DNA from: Anolis carolinensis
Taxonomy: Eukaryota
Direction: 5' to 3'
DNA: 64,000 nucleotides
Assembly (NCBI RefSeq): GCF_035594765.1
Contig: NC_085843.1
Coordinates: 26,489,955 to 26,553,954 of the forward strand
Made by a program: the position numbers and the translations under genes. A model generated the notes under the pieces. That model ran no database searches, was not told the DNA's origin, and worked only from the letters and a program-made list of their open reading frames with translations. Below, one piece after another: positions 35,430-64,000 of this stretch; the stretch's first letter is position 1, and the number at the start of each line of letters is the position of its first letter.

Positions 35430-37226
35430 TGTCAAGACCCAGGCTGCAGAGCACCAATAACCATGCACAGAGACCAGAATCTATCTAATATCTTTATTAA
35501 AGGAATATATAAAGTCAATAAAAACAAGTGAAGAATATAGTTCAGAAGTAGACCTTTCAGGAAAGGTCAAATATAGTCCAGGAAATCAGTGTCCAATATG
35601 AGATATTAGAGTCCAAAGTTATAATCCAATAACCGAAACACACACTTTGCCGAGCAAAGTGTGGGGAAATGACAGGGTCCTTTAGTCCAATGGAGCTTGA
35701 CAACAAGGCTGGAGAGCAAACTAGATTCTTAGCAAACAAGGCTTGATTCGAGGCAACAAGAAGCAAGAAACAAGAACAGGGTCCGTGGCGAAGTCCGTGG
35801 CAAGGTCCGGGGAACAAGGCAGGGTTGGAACAAGAACAAGGTCCTGGAAACAAGGATCAGGAGTAGCGTAGTCCACACACGATCTCACTCCCGAAGCTGA
35901 CGAATTGACTCCGCAAGGATCTCCTTGCGGGTAAACACCTATATAGGATCTTGTTTTCCCGCCAAAGAACACTTTCCCTGGGGAACAAGAAGTGAAACCC
36001 ATACTATGTCCAGATGCATGACTCCTTGTCACGACCCAGGCTGCAGAGCACCAATAACCATACACAGAGGCCAGAATCTATCTAATATCTTTATTAAGGA
36101 AGTATATAAAGTTAATAAAAACAAGTATAGGAAATAGTCCAGAAGTAGACCTTTCAGGAAAGGTCAAAATTAGTCCAAAAAAGCAATGTCCAATATGAAA
36201 TAGTAAGGTCCAAAGTTGTAATCCAATAACCGAAACACTCACTTGCCAAGCAAGTGAGGGGAGATGACAAGGTCCTTTAGTCCATGAACTTGAGCAAGGC
36301 TAGGAAATAACTTGATTCTTGGCACACAAAGCTTGATTCAAGGCAACAAGGGAACGAGGAGCAAGAACAGATCCGTGGCAATTACTTGGCGAGGTCCGGG
36401 AAACAAGGCAAGATCCGGGGAGAAAACAAGGCTGAGAACGAAGGCTTGGAACAGGAACAAAGGCTTGGAAGCAGGAGTAGCTGTCCACACACGCTGCTCC
36501 GGTAGCTGACGAATTGACTCCGCAAGATTCCTTCGGGAGCAAGGAACCTAAATAGGCCTCGTTTTCCCACCAGAGAACACTTCTCTGGGGAATCAGAAAC
36601 GAAAGTCAATCTCTGTGTCCAGATGTATGACTCCCTAAAATTTCTCATGGCAGCAGGCTTAATCATCTGAATGCTTTGCTGCAATTCTCAAGCTCCTGCG
36701 ATTAGCTTGTTGCACTCCTTTTTGCTGGAGATAATAATTACGGCGCGAAAAAGGGGGAGAACTCGACTCAGGGCTTGTTTGGCAGATTTCTGGAAGACAA
36801 GCCTCCTGCAGGTGCAAAGGCTCAATTTTTGGCTGGGATAGTTCCTTTTCTGGCTGAAATGGTGGAAAACCCAAGTTTTCCTCTTCATCATTCACAACAG
36901 CACTAGGAACGGGACTACATGGCCCATGAGTCATCACACTCCTTAAGATTTCCCAAGGGAAACAGGCTTAATCAGCTAATTGTCTGGCAGCGATTCTGGC
37001 GCTTCGGCGACTCGCCTCCCTAGCGCCTCTATCTCGATTATAATTATCCCGGCGAGAGAACGGGGGAGAATTCTGCCCAAGGCTTGTTTGGCTGACTTCT
37101 GGAGGACAAACATCCTGCAGGTATAAGGGCTCCAATTCTGGCTGAAACGGTGGGAAACCAAAGTTTTCCTCTTCGTCTGCCACAATAGTACTTGGAAGGG
37201 GACTACATGGCCCATGAGACATCACA
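35430..37226 (-). repeat. 3' LTR of the provirus (880 bp = 35430-36026 + 36944-37226)
   Basis: Matches the retained part of the 5' LTR (about 7 mismatches in ~393 bp by manual count); interrupted by a solo LTR. Confidence 0.92.
36027..36938 (-). mobile_element. Solo LTR (912 bp) of a sister Gypsy family, nested in the 3' LTR
   Basis: TGTGATGA...GTGACA termini on the minus strand; perfect 5-bp TSD CTCCT (36022-36026, 36939-36943). Confidence 0.93.
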
Positions 37227-40200
37227 CTATCCCCCTCCTCAAGGCCCCTCTCCAAAATGGGCCCTCTTCCCGAGGTGCGGGGCCGCGGCTTGGCAGGGTA
37301 GACCTGATGGAAGCGGTGGACTAAATCGGGGGCATGGACTGTGGAAGCGTCTTCCCAAGAGCGTTCTTCGGGGCGAAAACCCACCCAGTCAATGAGATAC
37401 TGAAGACGGCGGCGGTGGAATCGGGAATCCAAAATGTCCTGAACCTCGAATTCCTCCTCCCCGTCCACCAAAACAGGGGCGGGGGCCGGCTGGTCTGCAT
37501 CAGGGCGCACACCATCCGCCGGAAGGAGCAGGGAGCGATGAAACACAGGATGGATGCGCATAGAGCGCGGAAGTTGGAGTTTGAAAGTCACGGGGTTAAG
37601 TTGCGCCACCACTGGGTAGGGACCAATGAAACGGGCATCTAGCTTCCGGCAGGGATGGTGGGAGGGCAAAAAACGAGTGGACAGCAGAACCCGATCTCCT
37701 ACCTTGATTTCGGGGCCCGGTTGGCGATGACTGTCAGCGTGGCGTTTATAGTCCTCCTTGGCTTGGTCCAGTTGCTGGAGCAATAGTTGTTGCACCGCTG
37801 TGAGTTCTTGCAGCCAGTCCTCCGCTGCGGGGACTTCTGAGGTTTCAATGACTGAAGGAAAGAAACGTGGATGGAATCCGTAATTTGCAAAGAACGGGGT
37901 TTCCTTGGTTGAAGCCTGGACACCGTTGTTGTAGGCAAACTCTGACAGAGGTAACAGGGATGCCCAATTGTGCTGTTGGTAGTTTACATAACAGCGAAGG
38001 TATTGTTCCAAAGTGGCATTGGTGCGCTCCGTTTGTCCATCAGTTTGGGGATGGTGAGCTGAAGATAAACGAGAGTCTATGCCTAGTAGTTGTTGTAGTG
38101 CCTTCCAGAAACGAGAAGTGAATTGAGATCCACGGTCAGTGACCAAACTCTTGGGCAATCCATGTAGCCGGAAAATATGCTGAAGGAATAAATCTGCAGT
38201 CTGTTTGGCCGTGGGAAGGCCATCACAGGGAATGAAGTGGGCCAATTTGGTGAAAAGGTCCACCACCACTAGGATCGTGGTATATCCAAGGGAGGGTGGT
38301 AGGTCGGTGATAAAATCCGCAGAAATTATCTCCCATGGACGAGATGGAGTAGGAAGGGGATGTAGTAGCCCTGAGGGCTTCTCCCTTCTTGTCTTGGAAC
38401 GCTGGCATACCGGGCAGGTATTGACATATTTCTCTACATCCTTGCGGATCTTGGGCCACAAGAAATCTCTTAGGATCAAATGCATGGTTTTAAAAAGTCC
38501 AAAATGTCCTGCTGGCTTGCAGTCATGACACAGGTGAAGTGCCTTTTCTCTGCCTGGTCCTGGAGGGATGTAGACATGATTTCTGTAGCATAATAGCCCA
38601 TCCTTAAGTGAGAAGGGGAAACGTAGTCCTTGGCGAATTTGATCTTGAGTCCAGGCATCCGCCTGTTGACTGGCTCTAAGTTCTTGAGCACAAAGGGGTC
38701 CTGAAGTAGAGGGAATTGGTTCAACAGCGGTGGATTTGGTGTTTCCCACTGTGAGCATGGCAAAGGTTTCAGGCTGTAGCAATTGGGATTCGAAGGTCTC
38801 TCTGCGCCCTGCAGCATATTCTGGTTTCCGTGATAGAGCATCTGCTTGCTTGGTCTGAGCTGGGGTTACATAATGGATCTGGAAGTCAAAACGTTCAAAG
38901 AACAAAGCCCAGCGCTGCTGCCTCTGATTTAACCTGCGGGCAGTTCTTAGATGTTCCAAATTACGATGGTCAGTATGAACCTCAATGGGAAATTTGGCCC
39001 CTTCTAACCAATGTCTCCAATTTTCAAAAGCTGCCTTTATGGCCAAAAGTTCCTTCTCCCAAATAGTGTAATTTCTCTCTGGGGCTGTTAGTTGACGGGA
39101 GTAAAAAGCACAAGGATGAAGATGTTCTCCCACTGGTTGCATGAGTACAGCCCCAATTGCCACATCAGAGGCGTCAGCCTGCACAACAAAAGGGGTTTTA
39201 GGATCAGGGTGCTGTAGAATTGGCTGGGACGTGAATAACTTCTTTAGTTGCTGGAACCCTTTCTCTGCTTGCTCCGTCCAACGGAAAGGCTGTTTTCCAC
39301 GGATGCAGCTGGTGATTGGGTCAGACCAGCGGGCAAAGTCTGGAATGAACTTGCGGTAGTAGTTCGCGAACCCCAAGAAGCGTTGCACCTCTTTCTTGTT
39401 GGTTGGCGCCCGCCATTCCAATACTGCTGAAACCTTTGCCGGGTCCATGGAAAGTCCTAGTGGCGAGACACGGTAGCCCAGGAAATCTACCTCTTGTAGA
39501 TCAAAAGCGCATTTTTCCAACTTGGCATATAGTCCATGATCCCGCAATCGTTGTAACACCAATCTGACGTGGTTCTCGTGCTCCGATTGTGATCTAGAAA
39601 ACACCAAAAAATCGTCTAGGTATATGATCAAGAACCGATCTAGATAATCTTGGAAAATATCATTGACAAAATGCTGGAACGCTGCGGGAGCTCCGGATAA
39701 ACCGAAATTCATGACCAGGGACTCGAATAATCCGAATTTAGTCTGGAAAGCGGTTTTCCACTCGTCCCCCTCCCTGATGCGAACTAGATTGTAAGCCCCC
39801 CGGAGATCCAGCTTGGTGTAAACCTTGGCCCCTCGAAGCCGGTCTAATAGATCCGAGATCAAAGGCAGGGGGTAGCGGTTCCGCTTCGTGATATTGTTCA
39901 ATGCTCTATAGTCCACAACCAAGCGTAGGTCCCCTGACTTCTTTTTCACAAACATCACCGGGGAGGCAGCTGGGGATTGAGAGGGTCTAATGAATCCCTT
40001 GCGAAGATTTGACTCTATGAACTCCCTGAGAGCTTCTTGCTCTGGTTCCATCAAGGAGTAGAGGTGTCCTCGCGGGATCGGGGCCCCCTCCACCAAGTCA
40101 ATGGCACAGTCATATGGTCTATGTGGGGGTAGTTTCTCGGCTTCCTTTTCATTGAAAACATCCCAAAAGTCTGAATATTTCTTGGGTAAGGTGATGATGG

Positions 40201-40822
40201 GCTCAGCGTCTGTGGCATGGCAGACCTTGGCTACTAGACAATGGTTTTGGCAATATTTTGAAGCAAACTGTAGTTCTCTGTTGGTCCAGGACATGTTTGG
40301 GTCGTGGAGCGTCAGCCATGGAATTCCCAAAATCACAGGGAAGTGGGGCACCTCGGTAACAAAGAAGGAAATCTCTTCCAGGTGTTCCCTTATCCACATC
40401 CTGGTGGGTTCAGTCCATTGACTTACTGGACCCGTCTTTAGGGGACGGCCATCGATAGCCTGCACCACCCGGGCGTTCTTGAAATCGTGATATTGTAATC
40501 CCAGAGAGTCGGCATACTCTCTATCGATGAAATTGTTTGTTGCCCCTGAGTCTATCATGGCATGGATCATGACGGGTCCTTTTTTCGCTGACCACAATGT
40601 GACCACTAGGAGAAATAGGACCCCAGTTTGCGGCTCTTGAGTGGGGTTCTTGACCGGGTTGGCGAGCCTCTCTATGCCCGGTCGCTGGCTTCCCCCGCCG
40701 GCTTTGCGCCAGCCGCCTCGGCCGTCTCCGTCTCCGCGGAGGACGCCGACGCCAAGCGAGCGGCGGGCTTTTTCTTGGCTGGACATTCTCTGGCGAAGTG
40801 GCCCCCGTTCCCGCAGTACCAA
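36968..40822 (-). CDS. pol: Gypsy Pol polyprotein (protease-RT-RNase H-integrase-chromodomain); probably entered by -1 frameshift near 40690
   Basis: Uninterrupted 1284-codon frame with AMIDSGA (protease), YLDD (RT), DASD (RNase H), H..H..C..C zinc finger, DF/TDRG/TER integrase core, GPY motif and chromodomain (EFEVQDILDSR...YLIDWVGF...SWE). Confidence 0.96.
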   Translation of the reverse strand: MVLRERGPLRQRMSSQEKARRSLGVGVLRGDGDGRGGWRKAGGGSQRPGIERLANPVKNPTQEPQTGVLFLLVVTLWSAKKGPVMIHAMIDSGATNNFIDREYADSLGLQYHDFKNARVVQAIDGRPLKTGPVSQWTEPTRMWIREHLEEISFFVTEVPHFPVILGIPWLTLHDPNMSWTNRELQFASKYCQNHCLVAKVCHATDAEPIITLPKKYSDFWDVFNEKEAEKLPPHRPYDCAIDLVEGAPIPRGHLYSLMEPEQEALREFIESNLRKGFIRPSQSPAASPVMFVKKKSGDLRLVVDYRALNNITKRNRYPLPLISDLLDRLRGAKVYTKLDLRGAYNLVRIREGDEWKTAFQTKFGLFESLVMNFGLSGAPAAFQHFVNDIFQDYLDRFLIIYLDDFLVFSRSQSEHENHVRLVLQRLRDHGLYAKLEKCAFDLQEVDFLGYRVSPLGLSMDPAKVSAVLEWRAPTNKKEVQRFLGFANYYRKFIPDFARWSDPITSCIRGKQPFRWTEQAEKGFQQLKKLFTSQPILQHPDPKTPFVVQADASDVAIGAVLMQPVGEHLHPCAFYSRQLTAPERNYTIWEKELLAIKAAFENWRHWLEGAKFPIEVHTDHRNLEHLRTARRLNQRQQRWALFFERFDFQIHYVTPAQTKQADALSRKPEYAAGRRETFESQLLQPETFAMLTVGNTKSTAVEPIPSTSGPLCAQELRASQQADAWTQDQIRQGLRFPFSLKDGLLCYRNHVYIPPGPGREKALHLCHDCKPAGHFGLFKTMHLILRDFLWPKIRKDVEKYVNTCPVCQRSKTRREKPSGLLHPLPTPSRPWEIISADFITDLPPSLGYTTILVVVDLFTKLAHFIPCDGLPTAKQTADLFLQHIFRLHGLPKSLVTDRGSQFTSRFWKALQQLLGIDSRLSSAHHPQTDGQTERTNATLEQYLRCYVNYQQHNWASLLPLSEFAYNNGVQASTKETPFFANYGFHPRFFPSVIETSEVPAAEDWLQELTAVQQLLLQQLDQAKEDYKRHADSHRQPGPEIKVGDRVLLSTRFLPSHHPCRKLDARFIGPYPVVAQLNPVTFKLQLPRSMRIHPVFHRSLLLPADGVRPDADQPAPAPVLVDGEEEFEVQDILDSRFHRRRLQYLIDWVGFRPEERSWEDASTVHAPDLVHRFHQVYPAKPRPRTSGRGPILERGLEEGDSVMSHGPCSPLPSTIVADEEENFGFPPFQPELEPLYLQDVCPPEVSQTSLGQNSPPFSRRDNYNRDRGAREASRRSARIAARQLAD
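37227..37242 (-). other. Polypurine tract (PPT)
   Basis: GAGGAGGGGGATAG immediately precedes the TG of the 3' LTR on the minus strand. Confidence 0.88.
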
Positions 40823-41265
40823 CAGAGGTTTAAACGTTGGCGGCGGGCCTTCTCAGCAACATCTAATCTGGGACGCACATTGCCCAACTGCATCGGCTCC
40901 TCCTCGCTTCCTCTGGGGTATGGGGCTGGTGGCGGGGGTCTCCACACTGGACGCGGCTGAATACTGGCGGGAGCGGGAGGTTTCACTCCTGATCTTCCAC
41001 TCTGGCCTCGGAGCCACTGTTTTTTGTTGGCAAGCAGGACTTCGGCTCGTAAACATTGATCAATAAGTCTCTCAAGAGAGTTTGGGGGATCCACCTTGGA
41101 GATTTCTTCCTGCATCTCGAAGTTGAGACCCTCACGAAACTGTCCTCTGAGGGCTATATCATTCCAACCGGTGTTTTGGGCCAGCACTCGGAACTCGGCT
41201 ATGTACTGGGACAACAGCCTGTCCCCTTGGAAGAGACGCCGGAGTTTATGGCCGGCCGCCTCCAC
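40672..41265 (-). CDS. gag: Gypsy Gag C-terminal part (capsid remnant + CCHC zinc knuckle); N-terminus deleted or disrupted
   Basis: LFQG...QYIAEFRVLA...W (retrotransposon gag) and CWYCGNGGHFAREC zinc knuckle. The upstream remnant to 41413 has a stop codon and a frameshift. Confidence 0.9.
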   Translation of the reverse strand: MEAAGHKLRRLFQGDRLLSQYIAEFRVLAQNTGWNDIALRGQFREGLNFEMQEEISKVDPPNSLERLIDQCLRAEVLLANKKQWLRGQSGRSGVKPPAPASIQPRPVWRPPPPAPYPRGSEEEPMQLGNVRPRLDVAEKARRQRLNLCWYCGNGGHFARECPAKKKPAARLASASSAETETAEAAGAKPAGEASDRA

Positions 41266-41413
41266 ATTGTCCTCAATCCCCCATGTCGCCTTAAGGTGGT
41301 TCAGGAAGTTTTGCGCAAGTTTTGCATGGAGCCCGCATCAAATAGCGCCGTCGCCCAATTGGCCGCTGGCCCTTCTAGGAGACTGTAAATCTACGCCACC
41401 TTGACAACTTCTT

Positions 41414-41806
41414 GGATCTCCTTGCGGGTAAACACCTATATAGGATCTTGTTTTCCCGCCAAAGAACACTTTCCCTGGGGAACAAGAAGTGAAACCCATA
41501 CTATGTCCAGATGCATGACTCTTTAAGATTTCCCAAGGGAAACATGCTTAATCAGCTAATTGTCTGGCAGCGATTCTGGCGCTTCGGCGACTCGCCTCCC
41601 TAGCGCCTCTATCTCGATTATAATTATCCCATCGAGAGAACGGGGGAGAATTCTGCCCAAGGCTTGTTTGGCTGACTTCTGGAGGACAAACATCCTGCAG
41701 GTGCAAGGGCTCCAATTCTGGCTGAAACGGTGGGAAACAAAAGTTTTCCTCTTCGTCTGCCACAATAGTACTTGGAAGGGGACTACATGGCCCATGAGAC
41801 ATCACA
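41414..41806 (-). repeat. Truncated 5' LTR (U3 with TATA box at 41437-41442; R/U5/PBS missing)
   Basis: Matches 35917-36026 + 36944-37226 and is fused directly to gag sequence at 41413/41414. Confidence 0.9.
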
Positions 41807-60800: not shown

Positions 60801-62267
60801 CCGTAGAAACCTATAACCTGTGGTCACAATTGTGGCATAGATTCTCATTTTCAGAAAGACAGTTTGCCTGTTGTCTTAAGGAGAAAATTCCCTTGTTTCC
60901 TTGTCTTTAGTGCCATGCCATGTGGCAGAGTTCAGTGCCATATTATTCCTTATTTGACAGAAATACTGACATCTGCTTATTTGGAGGTTTAATATCCCTG
61001 GCTGTTTGCTTTTATTCATGTACAACTCTGAAACCACTTTGAGTCACAACTTTTTTTGTTTTAGATTAAACAACCATATGTTGTAGAATTAAACAGTCTC
61101 GGTTGTTATATTAAATTTGTAGATGACTCGCCACCTTCCAAAACTCAGTTACCTCATATCCCCCACCTACCCTTTCAGAAGGCAACAGATGGAACAGTTC
61201 TGCTGCGCCGTCATGTTTTCATGACTTATGATTGGAATTGCTAAAGATAAAGTGTCACTCACATGTTTTCTGTTTCTCCTTTCTGAAGAGTTGCTCTTGA
61301 TTGCTCTCTTCTTTAGCCTCCAGACTTGACACAGCTGGGAACCCTTCTGGCTTATGATATGTAACTGAAACTCACAGCAGTGCAAGATTGGGGAAAATGG
61401 CCCTTATGTTTGTTCTTTCTGAGATGGATCGCCCGAAGGATAATTAAGCCTCCTTCCCACCCATTGAAAATTTGGCTGGCAAATTTTTGTTCTCTTTTCT
61501 CCAGTCTAGAGGCTCAGTGATCATATTAAAAGGCATCAACATAAATGTCACACTGAACTAGGCCAGTATTCCTCAGATGTACTGTGTTATCTTCAGAATA
61601 GCCTACTCCTAAAAGACATCTTGTTCTTTCTAACATTAGTTATACTTATTGGTTCTCCCTAGAAACATTCCCACAACTCTATGGCAAACTACAAGAGGAG
61701 GATCAGGGACAGTAAATCCCAGATTTAATCTCCATTCAGGTTTAACTCACTAAAGGAATATTAAAAAGTTGAACACCTTTTCTGACATGCTACTTCTCCA
61801 AGCCAAATTCCAGCATATCTCTTACAATGAAACTCCCCCAAAATAAATCAGTGCATGTGATAGCAGAAGAAAGTCCACATTCCATGATTGGTTTGTTTTT
61901 AAAATCCCACAAACCCTTTTTTTTTCATTGCAGTGTGTTACCAATGACTGCAGCAAGCAACTGATAGATTACTTAGGCTCTCATGTTCTTCCTGGTTTGG
62001 AAAATTAAAGGGAGGACACTTAAATTTACTTCCATGGTTCAATTTCAGGAGGAGCAAGATTTACAAACAAATATTGGAGGCATTTTACAACTAAGTAATT
62101 TTTCTTCTGTAAACTTCTGTGAACTATTCTTTTAGAATCATAGGACCATAGAGTTGGAAGGGCTAACCCCTGCCAATACAGAAAAACCCAATCAAACCAC
62201 AGCCCTGACAGATGGCCATCTAGCCTCTGCCTAAAAACTTCCAGAGAAGGAGACTCCACTACCCTGC

Positions 62268-62805
62268 TGTCCTGTTTTGTCTTTCAAGAACAGCCTTAAA
62301 ACACTGTGGTAAGTAAATGAAAACTGCTTTACTTCAGCAAAACATAAAGCACAGCACACACTGTGGAATAATGCAAAAGGAAGCAAAGAAGTCTTTGGGC
62401 AAACACAGTCCTTAGTCTCTGATAAATTCCCAAATCAAATAGCAGTCTTACTTCAGACAAAGAAACAGCAATAAATCCTTAGGAGCAGTTTCCCAGATGC
62501 AGACTCCAAGCAGGCACAAGGGGAGCGAAGGCTTAGGCATTAGAGTCAGTTTGTTACTAGCAAAAGCTGGTTGCACCTGCTTCTGCTTTATAGCCGTGAG
62601 TACCCCTCACAACTGCTAGGACAGTTCCCAATTACTCAGCTGCATTTCTGGCAGCTATTCTAGCTGAACATCTCTGCTCTGTTTCCCTTCGCCTCTCCTG
62701 AAATGTGGGCACTTGCAAAATCTCCTCCTCAGATTCCAACTCACCCTCAGATTCATGAACACTTTCCTGCTCCCTTCCTCTTCTGAAGAAGAGGAATCCC
62801 TAACA
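62268..62805 (-). mobile_element. Solo LTR (538 bp), probably Gypsy
   Basis: TGTTAGG...GGACA termini on the minus strand, 5-bp TSD cctgc/cttgc (1 mismatch), TATAAA at 62587-62592 on the minus strand; interrupts a CR1. Confidence 0.8.
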
Positions 62806-62845
62806 CTTGCGAGCCATCATATTCCATTGCTGAAGAACTCTTACC

Positions 62846-63338
62846 ATCATAGAATCATAGAATAGTAGAGTTGGAAGAGACCTCATGGGCCATCCAGTCC
62901 AACCCCCTGCCAAGAAGTAGGAAATTGCATTCAAAGCACCCCCGACAGATGGCCATCCAGCCTCTGCTTAAAAGCCTCCCAAGAAGGAGCCTCCACCACA
63001 GTCCGGGGGAGAGAGTTCCACTGCCGAACAGCTCTCACAGTGAGGACCTTCTTCCTGGTGGAATCTCCTTTCCTGTAGTTTGAAGCCATTATTCCATGTC
63101 CTAGTCTGCAGGGCAGCAGAAAACAAGCTTGCTCCCTCCTCCCTATGACTTCCCTTCATGTATTTGTACATGACTATCATGTCTCCTCTCAGCCTTCTCT
63201 TCTGCAGGCTAAACATGCCCAGTTCTTTAAGCTGCTCCTCATAGGGCTTGTTCTCCAGACCCTTGATCATTTTAGTTGCCCTCCTCTGGACGCTTTCCAG
63301 CTTGTCAACATCTCCCTTCAATTGCAGTGCCCAGAATT
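62846..63338 (-). mobile_element. Young CR1 3' fragment
   Basis: [46 protein letters not shown]...; (catagaat) tail; close to the copy at 46167-47374. Confidence 0.93.
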
Positions 63339-64000
63339 AGAAGTTCTTCTTAATGTTTAGGTGGAATATCTTTTCCTGCAATTTGAATCCATTGTTCTTG
63401 GAAAAATCACCTTCACATGTTAAAATGGCCAGAACTAAAAAAGCACCCAACAGATCCCCTATTCTGACAGGTCCCACAGTTGGGCTCCTGTTTTTCAGGG
63501 TGACCTTTTATACTTAAGATCCCTTCCTGTATATGATTCTCAGCCTTCAAGGTAGCTGCTATTATGAATAGTGTCTGACTGCTTATATGTTAAAATTAAA
63601 AGAGAAAATTGCTGATTTTTAAAAGATTCTGTTTAGTCCTAGGAAAGTTGTAATGTTAAAGGAAGATGTTCTTAAAAGTCTACTTCTTCAGTAAATAAAT
63701 GCACCAGGGAAAAAGTTTGGGTCCTGCTCATCTCTGTGAAGACTCTCTGCCACCAGTGATGTGAAAAATCTTTTCCCAGCTTTGGAATGCTACTATTATA
63801 TTCCATAGTTTAAAAAATTATATTTTAGAGCTGGAGTACTCTAGTGCTTTGGTAACAGATGATGTGCAAATAATAAAGGCACTCATGTGCTTATTCATTG
63901 CTCCCCATCGCCACTGAAGTATTTTTATGCTTCACTTAATTTTCTTATTGTTGCCATTTTTTCTCCAGCGGGCCAAGGCTTCAGTATGGCCAGCTAGGGA

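Follow-up and report, generated by a model that had tools for sequence, protein, structure and literature searches.

Type I chromoviruses of the Ty3/Gypsy group encode gag and a pol in the order PR-RT-RH-IN, carry PF00385 at the C terminus of integrase (IN) and are bounded by TG...CA LTRs and a 5-bp target duplication. In the plant CRM group A, the accessible part of the description reports coding sequence that extends into the 3′ LTR and a CR motif that replaces the chromodomain (PMC3059260). Short arginine-anchor peptides tether foreign genomes to the nucleosome acidic patch in prototype foamy virus Gag, LANA and IE1, and the Gag anchor affects integration sites, according to excerpts of the reports (PMC9040877; PMC12125541). 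Among chromatin proteins, published excerpts describe binding of the acidic patch through RRSARLSA in HMGN proteins, with contacts by R23 and R26 of HMGN2 and Ser phosphorylation as a proposed off-switch (PMC12487698), through RRSARIAT in yeast Dot5, for which R6, R7 and R10 are needed (PMC13347269), and through RRSSRLTS in Dsup (PMC6773438).

The locus described here lies in a 64,000-nucleotide stretch of the Anolis carolinensis genome that was analysed as a whole (the window). We interpret it as a decayed solo LTR of a chromovirus whose pol-end motif is probably an arginine anchor that grips the H2A–H2B acidic patch, a reading drawn from sequence comparison. The lizard elements share the chromovirus organization given above, with the difference that an acidic LTR-encoded arm of 45–84 residues plus the motif follows the chromodomain, whereas RRSxR(I/L) is missing at that place from most of the relatives fetched (fish, amphibian and fungal-like). 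Their motif reads RRSARIAA or RRSARLAA, against RRSARLSA in HMGN and RRSARIAT in Dot5, with the same three arginines in the published excerpts (PMC12487698; PMC13347269); there is no homology to HMGN or Dot5 beyond the octamer, and the lizard motif lies at the C terminus of a retroelement polyprotein, with binding predicted. In foamy virus Gag, LANA and IE1 the anchor sits on Gag or a nuclear antigen, has another sequence and is not LTR-encoded, whereas the lizard motif sits on integrase. The elements do not belong to CRM group A, having both chromodomain and motif and LTR starts (n = 89) that are spread along contig C1, where no centromere restriction was seen.

A solo LTR and its fossil pol end

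The locus comprises the following features.

62268..62805, minus strand: solo LTR of Gypsy/chromovirus family B, TG...CA, 538 bp, with matches 92–100% identical
62806..62810, minus strand: upstream copy of the target-site duplication, GCAAG, with one mismatch against the downstream copy
62263..62267, minus strand: downstream copy of the target-site duplication, GCAGG, 5 bp
62632..62804, minus strand: fossil LTR-encoded pol end (acidic linker, motif and stop), with one frameshift after codon 11
62650..62673, minus strand: HMGN-like motif decayed to RCSARIAA, compared with the printed RRSARLSA and RRSARIAT
62587..62592, minus strand: TATAAA, a likely LTR TATA box, 3′ of the stop

The original prediction described a minus-strand reading, VRDSSSSEEEG, that starts at the second base of the LTR and continues after one frameshift, with a motif five residues ahead of the stop and upstream of a TATA box. 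Each of these elements is present in the sequence: the frameshifted tail reads EQESV...EQRCSARIAARNAAE*, the motif occupies 62673–62650, the stop 62634–62632, and TATAAA follows downstream of the stop at 62592–62587. Compared with most family B copies, the window copy lacks 4 nt ahead of the Ser, reflecting the frameshift and one codon fewer in the Arg run, and has Cys instead of Arg at motif position 2. The proposal that this TGT is a CpG transition of CGT agrees with the second motif codon of 30 family copies (CGT 18, TGT 11, CAT 1), which indicates that the Cys in the window copy is CpG decay. The pattern R[RC]SxR[IL]A arose by chance, in any of six frames, in 9 of 20,000 shuffles of the window LTR, and control flanking DNA held 2 matches in 492,142 positions; the motif is therefore no product of chance.

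The window solo LTR is a decayed and ordinary fossil, and its value is that of a second witness to a selected motif. In solo and 5′ LTR copies the frame lies upstream of its own TATA box and would not normally be expected to be expressed. Directly upstream of the window LTR (62846–63341, minus strand) lies an abundant repeat with an ATTCT-type microsatellite end, which we take to be the 3′ end of a CR1 LINE.

Family B and its kinship with family A

Family B is an abundant Gypsy (chromovirus) family. A genome search with the LTR returned 2173 first-look candidates, and all 40 that were scored were 92–100% identical along almost their entire length; the LTR start is matched exactly at 567 places. 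Thirty loci were fetched, picked by likeness to the window copy. Their 5-bp target duplications were perfect at 19, had one mismatch at 4 and were worse at 7. The frame was open from base 2 in 15 of these 30 solo copies and the motif stood in phase with base 2 in 25, so that most copies lack the frameshift of the window copy. RRSAR was intact in 9 copies and the anchor Arg in 29, most other changes being CpG transitions.

Parental elements were sought with a purine-tract pattern, which gave five matches (none in the control); four share the tract and the upstream integrase sequence, the fifth is L035, and a search with internal DNA added further copies. Across ten distinct junctions between internal sequence and LTR, the end of the chromodomain region runs in phase into the LTR in eight and is shifted at the junction in two. 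Two of the ten are open all the way from chromodomain to stop, and the copies share no earlier stop before the LTR. The decayed parents therefore run integrase and chromodomain through the polypurine tract into the LTR, a point that the original prediction had put up for checking; neither a family that lacks the open frame or motif nor a pol that stops short of the LTR was encountered among the B copies and parents. Two-LTR copies exist and are broken; one of them, L073, retains gag, a pol with frameshifts and an insertion, LTRs that are 90% identical and matching flanks. B copies are collinear with the pol of family A, whose close homologues carry the Pfam PR-RT-RH-IN domains. The chromodomain ahead of the motif matches PF00385 and HP1; that of L043 exceeds the PF00385 cut-off (E 3.5e-11), with HP1/CBX as best PDB matches. 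Aromatic residues occupy three positions that we take to form the chromodomain cage.

LTRs joined to internal sequence in L070–L075 are often about 460 bp long, with some of the 538-bp solo form missing; RRSARLAA occurs in several of them, which marks at least two B subfamilies. Nesting was seen in L037 (G000:C2:5024050-5034000), L075 and L070, with an A element within a B integrase region and B LTR pieces within B elements. In the less biased listing of LTR starts, 19 of 89 on contig C1 lie within 15 Mb of chromosome ends (8% expected); among the best B matches the bias had been stronger, with 24 of 33 placed at chromosome ends. Family C shows no such enrichment (4 of 38). The B enrichment could reflect targeting, recombination or ascertainment, and we do not take it as a sign of targeting.

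The window also holds a family A element (35430–41806) and other A-type LTRs.

36968..40852, minus strand: family A pol frame, 1294 codons from stop to stop, ending in chromodomain, linker and RRSARIAARQLAD* in the 3′ LTR
36986..37009, minus strand: RRSARIAA in the family A 3′ LTR, also present at 41589 in its 5′ LTR
5917, plus strand, and 36700, minus strand: RRSLRIAA in two other A-type LTRs

An A-type LTR of the RRSLRIAA subfamily (36027–36940, minus strand) is inserted in the 3′ LTR of this element directly after the pol stop.

The solo LTR had been called apparently unrelated to this element, a claim that the phylogenies overturn. In an IN tree of 51 rows, A and B are sisters (96/93) in a clade (100/99) that includes Podarcis, Vipera and Rhineura proteins. 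The RT tree (27 rows) joins them weakly (80/88) and leaves the placement of Podarcis unsettled, and both trees comprise chromodomain-bearing relatives only. Identity between the families is 52–63% in RT (five B copies) and 46–67% in IN. The closest named proteins to the element come from Anolis carolinensis.

Given this sister relationship within the sampled rows, the motif that A and B share is best explained by descent; convergence between them was rejected as less parsimonious on the IN and RT trees. The original prediction, which left conservation and convergence side by side, thus holds for conservation only. Its statement that the LTR has no further DNA similarity to family A LTRs stands outside a single 33-nt stretch (79% identity, E 0.098) over the motif and stop. 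Likewise, the motif does look functional, as proposed, and the A/B match, being inherited, lends no independent support; that support comes instead from silent divergence and pN/pS, and from the presence of the motif in two further families of the genome and in a Podarcis element, described below. The original prediction named no mechanism, and the HMGN-like match provides one.

Three chromodomain-less gene models (P0007, P0174 and P0192) terminate with the tail of an A-type LTR, including the motif or a variant form, and are either exonised solo LTRs or annotation artefacts; one of the three bears the annotation of an Anolis cation-transporting ATPase.

Breadth and selection of the LTR-encoded tail

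The RRSxR(I/L)A motif is conserved in four LTR families of the genome. A-type subfamilies read RRSARIAA, RRSLRIAA, RRSLRLAA or RRSTRLAL. Their 21 rows, once 3 duplicates are set aside, represent 18 distinct loci; the motif was found in 16 and was in phase in 14. Family C, a third LTR family with 220 candidates, has an acidic linker followed by an RRSARL-type motif, which is in phase in 14 of the 17 copies where it was found (20 examined); its anchor codon decays by CpG, and one copy has the chromodomain in phase. The fourth family (L135, family E) reads RRSQRLAL. Open representatives keep R1, R2, S3 and R5, with position 4 varying among A, L, T and Q. Family D tails were too decayed to read. 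In one family C copy (L078, 7781–8900), two LTR-like stretches surround little beyond the chromodomain, possibly a miniature derivative.

Beyond Anolis, Podarcis P0009 has a chromodomain, an acidic tail and PRRSARL. Tails from Rhineura, Vipera and Crotalus are acidic with an Arg-rich end but lack RRSxR(I/L), and the Salvator and Naja models look cut short. Only 4 of 264 fetched chromodomain-pattern proteins carry the motif; one of these, P0214, falls outside the squamate rows, and an AU test did not reject its placement inside (p-AU 0.43). Further squamate tails (P0148, P0191 and P0222) close with Arg-rich runs of other kinds, and in one of them a KRGRP stretch presumably resembles an AT-hook; this suggests that the end module is swappable.

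Two accounts accept a signal in the protein end and give it another role. Integrase C termini often bear import signals, as in Ty1, and the tail could be a real selected protein end whose motif serves nuclear import or acts as a general DNA- or RNA-binding basic helix. The basic stretch ahead of the motif in A and B fits this account, as do the differing Arg-rich runs of other squamate tails, which would be expected if charge alone mattered. We nevertheless consider it rather unlikely: R-R-S-x-R-(I/L)-A is kept exactly while adjoining basic residues turn over, the Ser is preserved across AGY and TCN codons, a Lys-rich classical signal is absent, and the octamer is identical at 7 of 8 positions to the Dot5 motif RRSARIAT, for which acidic-patch binding was tested according to the accessible text (PMC13347269).

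In families A, B, C and L135, five residues separate the octamer from the stop, apart from exceptions in single copies. Such a fixed distance would suit a signal read from the protein end, and RRS is a kinase-type site, so the motif might be a host-read regulatory signal, either a C-terminal degron or a kinase or phosphatase site, that sets the integrase level. The distance differs, however, in Podarcis P0009 and in P0214, and the final residues are not constant (D, N, E, R); we judge this account improbable. Ser phosphorylation does not separate it from the anchor reading, because phosphorylation is also the off-switch proposed for HMGN in the available part of the source (PMC12487698).

The tail is under purifying selection, and the constraint acts on the peptide. 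Across six open A-type copies, dN/dS stood at 0.08 over the chromodomain, rose to 0.80 over the pre-LTR linker with the purine tract, and fell to 0.25 in the LTR-encoded linker and 0.13 in the motif, values taken from 15 non-independent pairs of copies picked for open frames. In the coding part of the LTR, the pol frame has a pN/pS of 0.42 and the two alternative frames have 1.06 and 1.07; past the stop, values are 0.87–0.99. Between the window A element and a B copy with an identical octamer, every codon difference is silent. The Ser codon is AGC in the former and TCA in the latter; more generally, A uses AGY codons and both B and C use TCN, and Arg codons of both classes occur. A test of DNA gap lengths gave no support for coding constraint (multiples of three in 15 of 50 gaps, control 25 of 127).

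These data also bear on whether the conserved stretch is a promoter element of the LTR, with the peptide an incidental read-through. Its place, about 60–80 nt upstream of the TATA box, speaks for this view, as does its being the sole A–B DNA match. Silent differences, Ser codons that differ at all three bases and pN/pS below 1 in the pol frame alone largely refute this explanation, which we regard as very improbable.

A candidate nucleosome anchor on integrase

The reading that we favour, an arginine anchor for the acidic patch, agrees with residue correspondence: motif R1, R2 and R5 align with R6, R7 and R10, which Dot5 requires, and R2 and R5 with the HMGN2 contacts R23 and R26, and the octamer varies where known motifs vary (position 4 in Dsup), as far as the cited excerpts go. 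The pol frame crosses the polypurine tract, continues within the 3′ LTR and ends in the acidic linker and RRSxR(I/L)A; the tail would presumably remain part of integrase, forming a flexible arm that follows the HP1-like chromodomain. With the chromodomain on a methylated H3 tail and the motif on the acidic patch, of the same nucleosome or of neighbours, this two-part grip could hold the integration complex on chromatin; the motif would then add affinity rather than choose sites.

Several observations weigh against the anchor reading. The motif is short and basic, and RRSxR is also present in plant CMT2, where the accessible text assigns it no function (10.1101/2024.07.11.603080), so short matches are no proof of function. 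Nor is the motif universal in the squamate clade. The Pfam HMG14_17 model matched 0 of the 5 proteins searched, with E values up to 10 admitted, so that the element is not an HMGN family member, and the long acidic linker might itself engage the arginines or might be removed by cleavage. A complex prediction with H2A and H2B from the same genome and the family A tail scored 0.02, which speaks on neither side; AlphaFold 3 also fails on the HMGN2–nucleosome complex, according to the part of that report available (PMC12487698).

Among the search results viewed, drawn largely from outside subscription journals, we found no description of a retrotransposon integrase with a motif of the HMGN-like or acidic-patch kind; the LTR families may already bear names in repeat databases. 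On a broader scenario, which we hold to be evenly balanced, squamate chromoviruses evolved a U3 coding extension that places a host-mimicking, HMGN-type anchor beside the chromodomain on integrase. Lizard lineages would have retained the resulting two-point nucleosome reader, a distant chromovirus (P0214) may have reinvented it, and host genes could receive the motif from thousands of LTR copies.

The engagement of vertebrate Gypsy elements with chromatin is poorly tested, and a peptide-level binding test of the motif would be cheap. If the anchor reading is true, it extends to mobile elements a motif that published work describes for HMGNs, Dsup of tardigrades and Dot5 of yeast, and a selected motif of this kind on a retrotransposon integrase would parallel the foamy virus Gag tether. 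The LTR promoter region doubles here as selected coding sequence in an animal, as in plant CRM, and an LTR-encoded motif could be a route for such motifs into host proteins.
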